From positions 1-4,116 of the IMG/VR virus record IMGVR_UViG_3300012983_001691: DNA of 4,116 nucleotides; one strand, given 5' to 3'. Made by a program: the position numbers and the translations under genes. The notes under the pieces are model-generated. The model did no database searches, was not told the DNA's origin, and was given only the letters and a program-made list of their open reading frames with translations. The DNA comes from a virus (lineage: Duplodnaviria > Heunggongvirae > Uroviricota > Caudoviricetes). Within the stretch, counting starts at the first letter, position 1. Each line of letters opens with the position of its first letter. Of this stretch, positions 1-4,116 are shown piece after piece.

Positions 1-147
1 CAAAAGGCGATGTTAATCGCCCTGATCGTCATCTGTTTAACCGTCATAGTGACGGCACTGGTAACGAGGAAAGACCTCTGCGAGGTACGAATCCGAACCG
101 GCCAGACGGAGGTCGCTGTCTTCGTAGACTACGAATCTAGAGAGTAA
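1..147 (+). CDS. hokD: Hok/Gef-family small membrane toxin, 3' portion (start codon lies upstream of the window)
   Basis: Frame 1 from base 1 translates QKAMLIALIVICLTVIVTALVTRKDLCEVRIRTGQTEVAVFVDYESRE, stop TAA at 145-147. This is near-identical to my recollection of E. coli HokD/RelF (…KAMLIALIVICLTVIVTALVTRKDLCEVRIRTGQTEVAVF…), with a hydrophobic transmembrane helix then a conserved C-terminus. The ORF track misses it because it is 5'-truncated by the window edge. Confidence 0.8.
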   Translation, partial: QKAMLIALIVICLTVIVTALVTRKDLCEVRIRTGQTEVAVFVDYESRE

Positions 148-156
148 GAGTGACCA

Positions 157-178
157 GGCGGGAGAGAAATCTCCCGCC
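157..178 (+). other. GC-rich stem-loop in the hok 3' UTR (9-bp stem GGCGGGAGA/TCTCCCGCC, GAAA tetraloop)
   Basis: Perfect inverted repeat 157-165 / 170-178 around a 4-nt GAAA loop, 10 nt after the hok stop. No T-run follows, so it looks like an mRNA 3' stability or fold-back element rather than a terminator. Confidence 0.45.
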
Positions 179-207
179 ACCTCTGATGAGTCAGGCATCC
201 TCAACGC

Positions 208-245
208 ACCCGCACTTAACCAGCTTTGGCGGGTATATTTTATTT
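208..245 (+). terminator. Candidate terminator of the hok transcript
   Basis: Stem ACCCGC (208-213) / GCGGGT (229-234) followed by U-rich ATATTTTATTTG (235-246). The loop is large (15 nt), so this is only moderate. Confidence 0.35.
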
Positions 246-529
246 GTGAATATTTTTATAAAAATAATGCCCACGCACAGCATAAAACAAAAAGTATTAC
301 AGATAAAAAAGGAACGTAATGTGCAGATTTGTTGTTTTCCATATTTACTCACCTTAATATGATTAATCCTGATAGGGTTGTTATTTCAGCGGTTTTCAAA
401 TGAGATATTATGGTGATTTGGCAGATTTGCATAACATTAAAATTTAATTTGTTTAACCGCTTTTAATAATAAGCGTTGTTTTTATCCCAGCAATCTGTTG
501 TTTGGTTTTTATTCCATCAATGTGGGGGC

Positions 530-557
530 TTTACACTGGAATCAGTTTATTTATACT
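530..557 (+). promoter_or_regulatory. Candidate sigma70 promoter for the DUF1367/YbcO/Q operon
   Basis: TTTACA (530-535), 16-bp spacer, TATACT (552-557), about 58 bp upstream of the ATG at 616 in an AT-rich region. Found by eye; no scoring matrix applied. Confidence 0.3.
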
Positions 558-615
558 TTATACGTCAGCCTGAACAACTGGCATCTGCTGCACTGCGCCA
601 TCGAGAGATTGAGAA

Positions 616-1215
616 ATGGCGCATATACAACTGGTCAAACAAACCTCTTCTGGTTTACTTCTCCCGGCGACGCCGGAGAGTTGCGATTTTCTGCATCAAA
701 TCAAAATAGGTGAGTGGATACACGCAGACTTTAAGCGTGTGCGTAACTACGCATTCCACAAGCGTTTTTTCAAACTCCTGCAACTGGGATTCGATTACTG
801 GACTCCGGTCGGTGGGGCGATCACGCCTCGCGAACGAGAACTGCTGTCTGGTTTCGTGGATTACCTGTGCGAATCAGTTGGTCGGGAACACACACCAGCC
901 CTGAGTGATGCCGCAGAGCAATACCTTAACACCGTTGCGACTCGCAGAACCCGGGATACGGCCTTACTCAAGTCATTTGACGCTTTTCGCGAATGGATAA
1001 CCATTCAGGCCGGATTTTACACCGAGCATTTTTATCCGGACGGTAGCCGTGGACGCCGGGCGAAATCCATCGCTTTTGCGAATATGGACGAAACCGAGTT
1101 TCAGCAGGTTTATAAATCTGTACTGAATGTGCTGTGGAACTGGATCCTGTTCCGTAAATTTTCCTCTCCGGAGGAAGTCGAAAATGTGGTCGCACAGTTA
1201 CTGGAGTTTGCGTAA
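616..1215 (+). CDS. Phage protein of unknown function, DUF1367-like (199 aa)
   Basis: ATG at 616 preceded by a purine-rich GAGAG; the 199-codon ORF has diverse, protein-like composition. Its stop TAA (1213-1215) overlaps the next ATG (TAATG). The family assignment is by recollection of ~200-aa prophage proteins found next to DUF1364 genes and needs an HMM search. Confidence 0.8.
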   Translation: MAHIQLVKQTSSGLLLPATPESCDFLHQIKIGEWIHADFKRVRNYAFHKRFFKLLQLGFDYWTPVGGAITPRERELLSGFVDYLCESVGREHTPALSDAAEQYLNTVATRRTRDTALLKSFDAFREWITIQAGFYTEHFYPDGSRGRRAKSIAFANMDETEFQQVYKSVLNVLWNWILFRKFSSPEEVENVVAQLLEFA

Positions 1216-1505
1216 TGGTGGATTTACGTAAAGCGGCGCGGGGGCAGATGTGCACCATCAGAATTCCTGGCTACTGCAATCACAATCCCGAAACTTCTGT
1301 GCTGGCGCATTACCGACTGGCGGGGACGTGCGGAACAGCGACAAAACCACACGATATGCAGGCAGCGATTGCCTGTAGATCGTGCCACGATTTAATCGAC
1401 GGGCGGGTAAAAACCAGTGATTACACCAAAGAAGAATTACGCCTGATGCATGCAGAAGGTGTTTTTCGCACACAAGAAATCTGGAGAAAGGAGGGATATT
1501 TATGA
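1215..1505 (+). CDS. ybcO: YbcO-like protein (DUF1364), putative metal-binding nuclease-like protein (96 aa)
   Basis: ATG 1215 with GGAG at 1203-1206. The translation MVDLRKAARGQMCTIRIPGYCNHNPETSVLAHYRL…IACRSCHDLIDGR has the same length and Cys/His pattern as E. coli DLP12 YbcO as I recall it. Stop TGA (1503-1505) overlaps the next start in an ATGA arrangement. Confidence 0.8.
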   Translation: MVDLRKAARGQMCTIRIPGYCNHNPETSVLAHYRLAGTCGTATKPHDMQAAIACRSCHDLIDGRVKTSDYTKEELRLMHAEGVFRTQEIWRKEGYL

Positions 1506-2056
1506 TTTACCCAACGAATACAGGAAAAAGCGGAGAACACCTTCGTCTCACTACGCTGGAAAGTGTCTGGATTCAGGGAAAACTACGTATGTGGGGGCGC
1601 TGGTCATATATTGGTGGTGGCAGGTCAGGAAATATGTTCAATCAGTTGTTGGCATCCAAAAAATTGACGAAAACAGCCATCAATGAAGCCCTGCGCAGAA
1701 TGAAAAAAGCGGGAATAGAGAAACCTGAGCTGGAAGCGTTTTTGCGAGAGATGATCAATGGTAAGCAAAAGAGCTGGCTGGCGCATTGTACTGATGCAGA
1801 GGCGTTATGTATTGATCGGGTTATAAGTGAGGTGCTGGCAGAACACCCAGGATTGATTTGTATCCTCCGGCAACGATATGAAGGGCGGGGGATGACTAAG
1901 CGAAAAATGGCTGAATTGCTGAATGATTCACACCCTGAGTGGTGTTACGCCACGTGCCGTAATCGCATAGATGCGTGGTTGAAAATGGCAGAGTTTATGC
2001 TCTATCTGCCGATGCGTGATGCATTCTCTTCCGGGGATCTAAAAACCGTCTGTTGA
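1502..2056 (+). CDS. Late-gene antiterminator Q-like protein (184 aa)
   Basis: ATG 1502 with strong SD GGAGG (1490-1494), translationally coupled to the upstream gene. A promoter-like element and terminator lie immediately downstream, and a holin gene follows, which is the canonical position of Q. Motifs (WGRWSY…, YEGRGMTKRKMAELL…) resemble the phage 82/21-type Q family as I recall it, not the lambda Q zinc-finger type. Confidence 0.65.
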   Translation: MIYPTNTGKSGEHLRLTTLESVWIQGKLRMWGRWSYIGGGRSGNMFNQLLASKKLTKTAINEALRRMKKAGIEKPELEAFLREMINGKQKSWLAHCTDAEALCIDRVISEVLAEHPGLICILRQRYEGRGMTKRKMAELLNDSHPEWCYATCRNRIDAWLKMAEFMLYLPMRDAFSSGDLKTVC

Positions 2057-2082
2057 CTCAATCTGTTATCCGGGGCTATATT
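2053..2082 (+). promoter_or_regulatory. pR'-like late promoter overlapping the Q stop codon (candidate Q-utilisation region)
   Basis: TTGACT (2053-2058, overlapping the Q stop TGA 2054-2056), 18-bp spacer, TATATT (2077-2082). Lambda pR' also has a TTGACT -35, as I recall. A small hairpin follows in the predicted early transcript (CGCCAG 2090-2095 / CTGGCG 2102-2107). Confidence 0.5.
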
Positions 2083-2143
2083 CCTCACGCGCCAGCAAAA
2101 TCTGGCGTCGGGATTGGCGTCCTGGATAGAGACCGCGACAGAT

Positions 2144-2165
2144 ACACGCCGCGAGCGTGTTTTTT
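2144..2165 (+). terminator. tR'-like intrinsic terminator about 75 nt downstream of the late promoter
   Basis: Stem ACACGC (2144-2149) / GCGTGT (2155-2160), 5-nt loop, then TTTTT (2161-2165). With the promoter it would give a short 6S-like leader RNA unless Q-modified polymerase reads through. Confidence 0.5.
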
Positions 2166-2326
2166 ATTGTCGTATGCACGCGCACATCTGAATTATGGTG
2201 GGCTGTGTGGGGGCGGAGAGATCCGCGCCGGTCGGTTTCCCGGTTACGCCAACCCTGCACAGTTCACCACCAGACGATTGGCGTCGTCGGTGGTGAGTTA
2301 TTAAGAAACCACCAGAGGGCGTCATT

Positions 2327-2938
2327 ATGACAACTCAAATTTCTGTTGAAACTCTCTCCCCGATCACCCATAACCAGATTCCTGTTATTACCACCGAACT
2401 TTTGGCGCAGCTTTACGGCACTGAGCCGGTGCGTATTCGCCAGAATCATCATGAGAACAAAGTACGCTTCGTTGAAGGGAAACACTTTTTCAAAGTTGTT
2501 GGTAATGACCTTAAAGAATTGCGGGTAGCTTTAAACTACTCACAAAATTTGCGGGTTACTTTAAGTAACTCACAAAATTTGCAACCATCTTTAAGAGGGT
2601 TACAAATTTCCCCGAAAGCCCGCTCCCTCATACTCTGGACAGAACGCGGAGCAGCCCGTCATGCCAAAATGCTCGAAACCGATCAGGCGTGGGATGTGTT
2701 CGAAAGACTGGAAGACTGCTATTTCAGACAAAAGGATCCGTCAGCGCCAGTTTCATGCCAGAAAAGTTACGACACGCGAGTTCTCTGTTATCAGCAAGGC
2801 GGTGTCACTGTTTCCACAATTCAGTTGCGGGATGATGATATTGTTATTTCCCTTGAGTCATGGCTGGAACTGGCGAGAGCCAATGGTTGGTTTGTTGTTC
2901 GCAGAGATAAACTGGTGGAAAGGCTGATGCAGCTTTAA
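2327..2938 (+). CDS. ORF6N-domain protein (KilA-N/Bro-N-related, antirepressor-like) with unknown C-terminal domain (203 aa)
   Basis: ATG 2327 with SD GAGGG (2315-2319). The N-terminal segment …IPVITTELLAQLYGTEPVRIRQNHHENKVRFVEGKHFFKVVGNDLKEL… matches the ORF6N consensus as I recall it (LA-LYGV…RN…RFP-DF-F-LT…E), and the later …LILWTERGAARHAKML… matches the second half of that domain. Residues ~135-203 match nothing I recognise. Confidence 0.8.
   Translation: MTTQISVETLSPITHNQIPVITTELLAQLYGTEPVRIRQNHHENKVRFVEGKHFFKVVGNDLKELRVALNYSQNLRVTLSNSQNLQPSLRGLQISPKARSLILWTERGAARHAKMLETDQAWDVFERLEDCYFRQKDPSAPVSCQKSYDTRVLCYQQGGVTVSTIQLRDDDIVISLESWLELARANGWFVVRRDKLVERLMQL
2521..2610 (+). repeat. Three tandem 30-bp direct repeats inside the ORF6N-domain gene, in frame
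   Basis: Unit 1 (2521-2550) and unit 2 (2551-2580) are 25/30 identical; unit 3 (2581-2610) is degenerate but keeps the CTTTAAG and ACAAA-TT cores. They encode LRVALNYSQN / LRVTLSNSQN / LQPSLRGLQI. An inverted copy of the core (CTTAAAG) sits at 2510-2516. Confidence 0.85.
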
Positions 2939-3033
2939 AAAAGTTCTTGCAATTTTAGCCATAAACTGCTTCAATTCCAGTACGCTTCGCAAAGCTGTAT
3001 CGCGAGGCGAATCAAGCGCATGAACTTTACCAG

Positions 3034-3063
3034 AACCCGCCATTGAGCGGGTTTTGTTGTTTC
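3034..3063 (+). terminator. Intrinsic terminator downstream of the ORF6N-domain gene
   Basis: Perfect 7-bp stem AACCCGC (3034-3040) / GCGGGTT (3047-3053), 6-nt loop, then a T-rich tract TTGTTGTTT. It is + strand specific, since the complementary strand lacks a T-run. Confidence 0.65.
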
Positions 3064-3075
3064 TGGAGAACACCC

Positions 3076-3306
3076 ATGAAATTTTATGAATTATCTTCTG
3101 ATTCCCGATCTCAGGCCAAAATCACACTGGGTCAGTTCATTGTGGCTCGGGCTAACCCGGGGGTGGATGATTTTGAAAATTTGGGGCATTGCATCGCTGC
3201 CGCGTTTATTGCGATGGAGCGCTATGAAAGCGCCCCTGAGGTTGGTGAGGGGCGTAGCGGGAACGGAATACCCGTTAATGGCGATCAAAACTCACTTCTT
3301 GATTAA
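3076..3306 (+). CDS. Hypothetical small protein (76 aa), uncertain
   Basis: ATG 3076 with SD GGAG (3064-3067), directly after the terminator. The translation MKFYELSSDSRSQAKITLGQFIVARANPGVDDFENLGHCIAAAFIAMERYES… has a plausible helical core and a Gly/Pro-rich tail. No homolog recognised. Its 3' end overlaps the minus-strand gene by 15 bp. Confidence 0.3.
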   Translation: MKFYELSSDSRSQAKITLGQFIVARANPGVDDFENLGHCIAAAFIAMERYESAPEVGEGRSGNGIPVNGDQNSLLD

Positions 3307-3570
3307 ATGCCATGAGCGATCTGCCGCTTGAGTGACTAGCACCCGAGGGTTCTTTTTTATTGTCCCAGCGATGGCTACAACTTCTTCTCGGACTGCGCGA
3401 GCAGATGCGTTTTTTTCGGCTGTGTACTCAGCGTCTGGAAGATAAAACCAGTTTCCTGCTCCATCTTGAATTTCGCGAAAGTATCTTCGGGATTCCATCG
3501 CCTCATGAAGGCGAGCGTAGTCATCGGATGATGCACCCACAAGCTCAACGCGGACAGTAAAACTAGCCAT
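3292..3570 (-). CDS. Hypothetical small protein (92 aa) encoded opposite to the rest of the window
   Basis: ATG at 3570-3568 (minus) is preceded by a near-consensus SD AAAGGAGT five nt upstream. The translation MASFTVRVELVGASSDDYARLHEAMESRRYFREIQDGAGNWFYLPDAEYTAEKNASARAVREEVVAIAGTIKKNPRVLVTQAADRSWHLIKK shows alternating beta/alpha-like segments. The longer 169-aa track ORF (to 3801) starts at TTG and its extension is low-complexity, so I take the internal ATG as the start. Confidence 0.6.
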   Translation of the reverse strand: MASFTVRVELVGASSDDYARLHEAMESRRYFREIQDGAGNWFYLPDAEYTAEKNASARAVREEVVAIAGTIKKNPRVLVTQAADRSWHLIKK

Positions 3571-3664
3571 ATATACTCCTTTAATTGATATGGTTACTTT
3601 TGGCGATTTAACGATATCAAACACGAGGATATACCGCCAGAAGCTTAATCTGGTACTCCATCTG

Positions 3665-3689
3665 GCCCTGGCATGTCCCGGGGCTTTTT
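3665..3689 (+). terminator. Intrinsic terminator about 100 bp upstream of the holin start
   Basis: Stem GCCCTGG (3665-3671) / CCGGGGC (3678-3684) with one G-U pair, 6-nt loop CATGTC, then TTTTT (3685-3689). Confidence 0.5.
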
Positions 3690-3787
3690 CGTTGTTAGGC
3701 TCCGGAAACATCCTCGACTTCTTGTGAGCAAGCCAGAGAGCCTGAATCTTACATTTAGCACCATCCGAACTTTCGGAGGTGAGGCTT

Positions 3788-4116
3788 ATGAAAATGCACA
3801 ATGTCCCTCATTCCTGGCCTGACTTACTGGAACTCTTACAAAGTTGGTGGCGTGGAGACACACCGCTGGGCGCAGTGATTATGTCGATCGTTATGGCTGG
3901 TTTGCGCATCGCCTATTTTGGCGGTGGTGGTGGCTGGAAGCGAAAAACGCTCGAGATTTTGCTATGTGGTGCTCTGACGCTGACCTTTGCATCCGCTCTT
4001 GAGTATGTCGGATGGCCTAAATCGCTTTCTGTTGCCATTGGTGGTGGCGTGGGGCTGATCGGTGTCGATGCTATTCGTGGGGCTGCAATGCGAGTAATCG
4101 GTAACAAATTTGGTAG
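3788..4116 (+). CDS. Lambda-S-like holin (class I, Phage_holin_3-like), 5' portion; continues past the window end
   Basis: ATG 3788 with SD GGAGGT (3774-3779). I translated it by hand: MKMHNVPHSWPDLLELLQSWWRGDTPLGAVIMSIVMAGLRIAYFGGGGGWKRKTLEILLCGALTLTFASALEYVGWPKSLSVAIGGGVGLIGVDAIRGAAMRVIGNKFG…, with no stop before base 4116. It has a Met-Lys-Met start and hydrophobic segments laid out like lambda S (MKM…AYLRGRYNGG…IGTDSIGSLIKRF). The ORF track omits it because it is open at the 3' end. Confidence 0.75.
   Translation, partial: MKMHNVPHSWPDLLELLQSWWRGDTPLGAVIMSIVMAGLRIAYFGGGGGWKRKTLEILLCGALTLTFASALEYVGWPKSLSVAIGGGVGLIGVDAIRGAAMRVIGNKFG

Follow-up and report, generated by a model that had tools for sequence, protein, structure and literature searches.

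Both variable-number tandem repeats (VNTRs) in coding sequences and conserved inverted repeats or coding palindromes are known phenomena. The in-frame VNTRs that are used for multiple-locus VNTR analysis (MLVA) of bacteria are arranged head to tail, have a period divisible by three and conserved flanks, and vary in copy number between strains. The origin iterons in gene O of phage lambda are likewise in-frame coding repeats; each repeat has an internal dyad symmetry, and together they encode a variable stretch of the protein. Perfect inverted repeats are conserved in Proteobacteria and have been explained by preferential template-switch correction (Lavi et al. 2018, PMC5941160), and inverted repeats in functional protein-coding sequences have been described as a compromise between protein and secondary structure (PMC6649704, 2019). 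Traits of all these systems recur in a 4,116-nucleotide (nt) stretch of a caudoviricete genome (IMG/VR record IMGVR_UViG_3300012983_001691, positions 1 to 4,116; hereafter the window), where a gene encoding an ORF6N-domain protein of the antirepressor type contains an array of three 30-bp units. The array is an in-frame repeat of variable copy number, and its unit is a coding palindrome that is carried by the ORF6N genes compared here; that this is so, and that the arms of the palindrome are kept complementary mainly by template switching, is a reading to which we give an about even chance of being correct.

Tandem Repeats Finder detects a 30-nt period twice within the array, at 2519-2582 (2.1 copies, 85% matches, score 93) and at 2538-2595 (1.9 copies, 78%). 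A first-pass annotation of the window had placed three contiguous units at 2521-2610 and termed them a triplication. The array is real, but the units are located at 2519-2608, a shift of 2 nt, and the term is adequate only for units A and B (25/30 identical bases by direct count), whereas it overstates the similarity of unit C (18/30 with either A or B). The period preserves the reading frame, as had been noted, and the array is indeed embedded in the ORF6N domain: the Pfam match of the 203-residue protein (PF10543; E = 4.9e-19; 68.8 bits vs. a cut-off of 27.8) extends over residues 12-115 and places 104 amino acids on 84 profile positions, which leaves about 20 extra residues, i.e., two units. 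A CTTTAA(A/G) core is present in each unit, on the plus strand at 2529, 2559, and 2589. The window contains six matches to CTTTAAR (1.5 expected; 2 of 200 shuffles reach this number), and their exact 30-nt spacing in the array results from the units being tandem repeats. The inverted copy (CTTAAAG) on the minus strand at 2510-2516 is present as well, but it is incidental because it is not conserved in other alleles, which have CTGAAAA or TTGAAAA at this position; it pairs with unit C only in the RNA fold of the single sequence. With a period of 30, head-to-tail copies, conserved flanks, and a strain-variable copy number, the array is an in-frame VNTR.

The variation in copy number between strains, which had been anticipated, is evident from the comparison of homologs, which possess one, two, three, or four units in E. 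coli prophages. Among the 120 closest protein clusters, 35 share the arrangement A-B-C with the window, 78 have two units (A-C or B-C), six have a single unit (followed by P[IV]SPK), and one has A-B (followed by PISPK); the same set of alleles is found at the DNA level in viral contigs. The A-B-C array is 100% identical in every match listed of the 112 phage records with at least 99% identity, most of which are Shiga toxin (Stx)-converting phages and include the ant gene of VT2-Sakai. The genomes of O157:H7 have the arrangement A-B-B-C with two identical B units, and a 60-nt query spanning the B-B junction matched O157 genomes in single pieces at 60/60 bases; the 169 records that match this junction at at least 99% represent an upper bound, since BLAST joins single-unit pieces into false full-length matches.

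Each of the three units also occurs alone in homologous loci (numbered here with the prefix L): unit A in alleles of 185 amino acids (L017, L020), unit B in L056, L085, and the P1-like L233, and a homolog of unit C with the sequence LRTSQRGLQI in L065 and L087. Among the alleles, different N-terminal sequence types are paired with different units. To judge from these sequences, the A-B-C array is a concatenation of three variants of one cassette and is not the product of a recent event; it is built from diverged variants that are allelic elsewhere. The slippage that had been proposed for the array is supported, but a recent date does not apply to A-B-C and agrees instead with the duplication in O157:H7, where the identity of the two B units speaks for a recent origin; among the duplications, B-B alone looks recent.

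In the family at large, most homologs have a single unit, and the connector encoded by this region is most commonly 27-30 amino acids long (149 family representatives); connectors of two to four unit lengths are present in about 20% of these representatives. Independent expansions of the connector were observed in other genera, with four different hairpin units in Symbiopectobacterium (L097, 550-766) and two hairpin units each in Pectobacterium (L095, L108) and Citrobacter (L090; all 550-700), and each of these units is a near-perfect palindrome of its own sequence. Moreover, BLAST gave many partial matches to other ORF6N or Ant genes whose ends coincide with unit boundaries (query positions 187-222 and 218-289), which indicates that the halves of the domain occur in different combinations. 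These breaks could stem from recombination at the palindromes or could be mere alignment breaks in a divergent connector.

Every unit of the array is a quasi-palindrome of 13+13 nt (27 nt in total) centered on the central T of CTTtAAG. In the whole window, units C (score 12) and B rank first and second among the palindromes and surpass the terminators, and the number of palindromes with a score of at least 9.5 is three, compared to an expectation of 0.13. Single-unit homologs have a palindrome at the same place but with different arms, such as TTGCGACTAGTTT/AAACGAGTCGCAA in L051, CACAGAAACTCTT/AAGGGTTTCTGTG in L061, and CTGAC...GTCAG in L059. The palindrome is also present in 65 loci of other genera, including Salmonella, Pectobacterium, Photorhabdus, Acinetobacter, Roseospira, and Giesbergeria, with stems of 10-15 bp and loops of 3-5 nt. 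The central 3-5 nt are unconstrained, and the sequence of the unit is not conserved between lineages. A remote group of ORF6N genes from gut-phage contigs (L153-L232) encodes the motif L[KR]SQ[IF]VTS, which is itself specified by a palindrome of about 30 nt with arms of up to 16+16 nt (e.g., GTTTGAGGTCACAA-T-TTGTGACCTCAAAC); its arms co-vary (TCACAA/TTGTGA, TGCCAA/TTGGCA, TTCCAA/TTGGAA, and the near-complementary TCGCAA/TTGCGT). The center of the palindrome coincides with codon position 2 in the class of the present gene, whereas the remote group and Roseospira have it on position 1. The role at the nucleic-acid level that the first-pass annotation had suggested is thus upheld in the form of a palindrome whose structure is conserved and whose apex is CTTTAAG, but not in the form of a conserved binding sequence.

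Another coding palindrome, the third best of the window, is located in the YbcO/DUF1364 gene (1350-1384; CACGATATGCAGGCA-GCGAT-TGCCTGTAGATCGTG). It contains AGATCG where most relatives have AGCTCA, which raises the complementarity of the arms from 11/15 to 13/15, and is absent from distant YbcO homologs. The change to AGATCG could be a template-switch mutation.

Maintenance of the palindrome was evaluated with three sets of genes that were aligned by protein register alone, without fitting to structure. Among 26 proteobacterial genes (A2), 88.5% of the arm positions are paired, compared to 64.5 +/- 1.8% after shuffling (0/500 as high) and 28-40% when the arms are slid against each other; cells with changes on both sides number 76 vs. 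26. The class of the present gene, including the three units of the window (A5), yields 86.1% (shuffled, 74.1 +/- 1.6%, 0/500; slid, 21-44%; double changes, 36 vs. 11.9), and the remote group (A4; L[KR]SQ[IF]VTS...YAFTEQG), which had been retrieved with a protein query that tblastn confirmed with up to 73% identity, yields 88.1% (shuffled, 74.0 +/- 1.3%, 0/500; slid, 21-40%; double changes, 45 vs. 16). RNAalifold recovers the helix of A2, with compensatory changes in 10 of its 11 pairs. Watson-Crick pairs in A2 number 261/312, compared to 169 +/- 7 under synonymous resampling, and the mean score of the best palindrome in the remote group is 10.7, compared to 6.1 +/- 0.15; in each of the 47 remote-group genes (47/47), it is the loop segment that contains the domain's best palindrome. 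Third codon positions show covariation with first or second positions of the codons opposite them. Hence, synonymous codon choice is tuned to arm complementarity, and it is at the nucleotide level that the three tested ORF6N sets maintain the palindrome, independent of its sequence and codon phase.

Mismatches of the G.T type and the A.C type are about equally common (20 vs. 16, 2 vs. 9, and 14 vs. 17 in three separate counts), i.e., there is no excess of G.U over A.C on the sense strand, in counts that are confounded by stop-codon avoidance and shared ancestry. Many mismatches occur where the full complement would be a stop codon: the reverse complements of TCA and TTA are TGA and TAA, and CGN is used instead. 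The palindrome is therefore about as perfect as the reading frame permits.

At the protein level, the AlphaFold model of the three-unit protein has a well-defined core (predicted local distance difference test score, pLDDT, 85-93) and a pLDDT below 50 for residues 74-90. The model of a one-unit allele of 185 amino acids shows the same order of strands and helices, with a pLDDT of 69-78 in the connector. The two models thus share the core and differ only in the connector, which is longer and modeled with lower confidence in the three-unit protein, in agreement with the lengthening of a loop that had been predicted for this protein; the repeat extends the connector that leads from the helix after strand 54-58 to the strand that comes next, leaving the core unchanged.

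Homogenization of the arms by template switching in a tolerant connector is slightly favored as the explanation of these observations. Intrastrand template switching (quasipalindrome correction) would copy one arm onto the other and thereby keep the arms complementary, and the palindrome would persist because the connector tolerates paired changes of amino acids. Replication slippage, or unequal recombination, between the direct repeats that bound the units (CTCACAAAATTTGC) would account for their gain and loss, as the allele series suggests, and the formation of hairpins by the palindromes would favor such slippage or unequal exchange. The order A-B-C may have arisen by out-of-register exchange between alleles with different cassette variants. 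On this reading, the array does not consist of sequence-specific binding sites; the stem-loop may, however, also have a cis function that depends on its structure. The near-equality of G.T and A.C mismatches speaks for template switching rather than for selection of an RNA structure on the sense strand, as do the stop-codon-limited mismatches and the different codon positions of the palindrome center between lineages. Near-perfect short arms, arm-symmetric changes, and the lack of strand bias in the mismatches are shared with the conserved inverted repeats of Proteobacteria (PMC5941160); by contrast, the palindrome described here is coding, occupies one position of one domain across distant bacterial groups, and is tandemly multiplied.

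Several points weigh against this explanation. The palindrome is found at one place in nearly all members of the enterobacterial-prophage, Acinetobacter, Roseospira, and gut-phage groups, and such near-universal retention is less easily accounted for if selection is absent, as mutation alone would be expected to erase the palindrome from many lineages. What the palindrome of the remote group encodes is not a free loop but a conserved motif (L[KR]SQ[IF]VTS). Coding constraints and shared ancestry also influence the mismatch counts, so that the similar numbers of G.T and A.C argue only weakly against a role as RNA. A functional role of the palindrome is therefore possible in view of the breadth of its conservation. 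In its strongest form, it would mean that ORF6N genes carry an obligatory functional palindromic cis-element in their coding sequence, whose shape is selected while its sequence drifts, which we consider rather unlikely. Such an element could be a regulatory stem-loop, or an operator or hairpin recognized by the product of the gene itself, whose variable loop the element encodes; site and recognition loop would then change together, and tandem expansion would alter the dosage of the element.

A possible but less probable alternative to template switching is that the stem-loops are selected in the mRNA of the antirepressor gene (or in single-stranded DNA), where their shape would be read by a structure-specific factor and tune the expression of the antirepressor. 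Candidate readers are RNase III, the ribosome, and RNA polymerase, and extra units would provide extra stem-loops. The strong covariation with free sequence in three independent alignments, the compensatory changes in the RNAalifold helix, the unconstrained center that resembles a hairpin loop, and the retention of the palindrome at one position almost everywhere are all in line with this alternative, as is the tight post-transcriptional control reported for antirepressor genes of this type, with C4 and isrK upstream (PMC4825925). The 121-nt array is also more stably folded than its dinucleotide shuffles (z = -3.2 for RNA and -3.1 for DNA), but its RNA folding energy (-27.0 kcal/mol) is only modestly better than that of synonymous recodings (-19.5 +/- 5.0 kcal/mol; 77/1000 at least as stable), the most stable region of the window lies outside the array, and G.U pairs show no excess over A.C on the sense strand. 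Moreover, no known RNA family covers the array; the only Rfam hit is rivX on the minus strand, far below threshold (21.6 bits vs. a gathering score of 100), and the homologous position in 20 other loci gave none. An intrinsic terminator can be discounted, as there is no U-tract after the hairpins on either strand, and the array is not a particular target of isrK or C4, because its duplex energies with these RNAs are no better than those of the rest of the gene or of shuffled sequences. A programmed -1 frameshift was also rejected: the in-frame heptamer U_UUA_AAC at 2530-2536, 8 nt before hairpin B, has the spacing typical of such a site, but it is present in A-type units only and thus not conserved, and a stop codon ends the -1 frame after 10 codons.

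It is less likely still that the palindrome is a duplex site for a co-evolving dimeric protein, perhaps the ORF6N protein itself (as a self-operator) or a partner, and that the array acts like iterons or operators. In favor of such a site, ORF6N is regarded as a DNA-binding domain of the KilA-N type. Symmetric arms that co-vary between homologous systems are expected of a homodimer that co-evolves with its operator, the equal counts of G.T and A.C mismatches fit a constraint at the DNA level, and the ORF6N gene is the only constant neighbor of the palindrome. The palindrome is not tied to C4 and isrK, because Acinetobacter, Roseospira, and Giesbergeria retain it even though neither RNA was found in the 400 nt upstream of their ORF6N genes. 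However, there is no copy of the unit outside the array in 12.6 kb of prophage, a single site suffices in most homologs, and complementarity over 10-15 contiguous bp without conserved positions is unlike known operators. In addition, the P1 antirepressor Ant is reported to bind the C1 repressor protein. A Foldseek search against the PDB yielded no significant match (best E = 0.53) that would point to a mode of DNA binding, and a sequence search of the PDB did not find a solved structure.

The same observations speak against an array of iterons like that of lambda gene O, which the first-pass annotation had considered. Iterons are conserved direct repeats at an origin or in an initiator gene, whereas unit C has only 18/30 bases in common with the other units, the sequence of the unit is free to differ between lineages, and the host gene is not an initiator gene but of the ORF6N antirepressor type, with no origin features found. 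The number of units ranges from one to four and is usually one, i.e., a multi-copy array is not maintained in homologs, and it is the symmetry that is conserved here rather than the sequence. The opposite view, according to which the repeat is purely a matter of the protein (a structural or recognition repeat of 10 residues) and the DNA symmetry a by-product of the amino acid sequence, is very improbable. A period that is a multiple of three, connectors that differ between alleles, and the recurrence of multi-unit connectors in the family are compatible with it, and a variable loop of an antirepressor could set the specificity for its partner. It is, however, contradicted by the bias of synonymous codons toward arm complementarity (in A2 and the remote group), by the covariation of third codon positions with first or second positions of the partner codon, and by the fixed place of the palindrome despite a codon phase that differs between lineages, and the low model confidence of the region is a further point against it.

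The window (Table 1) matches a lambdoid prophage of Escherichia coli strain R1 with 100% identity over the ORF6N gene, which is annotated there as ORF6N domain-containing protein. The gene order is hok, DUF1367, YbcO/DUF1364, a Q-like DUF1133 gene, the ORF6N-domain gene, two small open reading frames (ORFs), and a holin gene of the lambda family; the ORF6N gene is thus situated between the Q-like gene and the holin gene, and the c4-a1b1, isrK, and C4 RNAs lie between the Q-like gene and the ORF6N gene. A C4/isrK module is also located upstream of the homologs in L082 (O157:H7), L061, L090, L102, L113, and L233 (the P1-like phage RCS47), and the Ant protein of RCS47, encoded behind isrK and C4, has the same ORF6N domain with one B-like unit. 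The Q-like gene, the isrK and C4 RNAs, and the small ORF that overlaps the start of the ORF6N gene resemble immI of P1 (c4 RNA, icd, ant) and the layout antQ-isrK-orf45-anrP of Gifsy-1 (PMC4825925). Because the module is arranged as in Gifsy-1 and P1 immI and the Ant protein of RCS47 shares the domain, the gene is of the antirepressor type and not a replication gene. Its product is predicted to inactivate a repressor, based on its homology to the N-terminal domain of P1-like Ant. A term search of PMC4825925 gave no mention of a palindrome or repeat in the coding region of the antirepressor, and unlike the P1 immI and Gifsy-1 modules, ORF6N genes without C4 or isrK within 400 nt upstream also possess the palindrome.

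Table 1. Coordinates of the ORF6N gene, its repeat units, and neighboring RNA features in the window
Feature	Position	Strand	Basis or remarks
c4-a1b1	2076-2128	+	Rfam, 50.5 bits, above gathering score
isrK	2089-2165	+	Rfam, 75.5 bits, above gathering score
Small ORF, 57 codons, placed like Gifsy-1 orf45	2157..2330	+	Stop overlaps ORF6N start (ATGA, 2327-2330)
C4 antisense RNA	2191-2274	+	Rfam, 66.7 bits, above gathering score
ORF6N-domain gene, 203 aa, antirepressor type (AnrP / P1 Ant N-terminal domain type)	2327..2938	+	ORF list, Pfam
Inverted CTTTAAG copy (CTTAAAG)	2510..2516	-	Incidental
Unit A, LRVALNYSQN	2519..2548	+	Arms 2519-2531/2533-2545 around T2532, 10/13 complementary
Unit B, LRVTLSNSQN	2549..2578	+	Arms 2549-2561/2563-2575 around T2562, 11/13 complementary; extended arms 2543-2561/2563-2581 (inverted repeat, 19 nt, 84%)
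Unit C, LQPSLRGLQI	2579..2608	+	Arms 2579-2591/2593-2605 around T2592, 11/13 complementary; extended arms 2575-2591/2593-2609 (inverted repeat, 17 nt, 88%)

Downstream of the ORF6N gene, a terminator-like hairpin at 3031-3062 (CAGAACCCGC-CATTGA-GCGGGTTTTG) with a T-rich run after it is situated where Gifsy-1 has isrJ, but it has no Rfam match; a second terminator-like hairpin is located 3' of hok (157-178). The two small ORFs at 3076-3306 (plus strand) and 3295-3570 (minus strand) are convergent, with a slight overlap of their 3' ends; they lack Pfam matches and are annotated as hypothetical proteins in R1.

The repeat by itself is an ordinary coding VNTR. The exact duplication in O157:H7 is a further trait that it shares with MLVA loci, but its unit is palindromic and family-wide, and the units are diverged and allelic elsewhere rather than the result of one recent duplication. 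The inverted repeats of PMC6649704 are up to 284 bp long, lineage-specific, and distributed over many genes of one genome, whereas the present palindrome measures 25-35 bp and is found in one protein family of many phages and bacteria. In literature searches, neither the use of this locus for typing nor the repeat itself was found to be described, and the same is true of palindromes within the coding regions of ORF6N or antirepressor genes; the sharing of the palindrome across the tested ORF6N groups is thus undescribed in the literature searched. Since the repeat lies in the ant gene of Stx-converting phages and O157:H7 prophages, it could serve as a size marker.

The amino acids of the connector are largely dictated by the symmetry of the DNA, and this in a common domain of phage antirepressors. 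If the palindrome is selected, it would represent an undescribed cis-element in genes that decide on prophage induction. Should template switching alone maintain it, it would be an unusually clear example from nature of a coding palindrome that perpetuates itself, shapes the protein sequence, leaves mismatches that are limited by stop codons, and seeds tandem expansion. Under either reading, the variation of the loop in the ORF6N family is not readable as the outcome of selection at the protein level alone.

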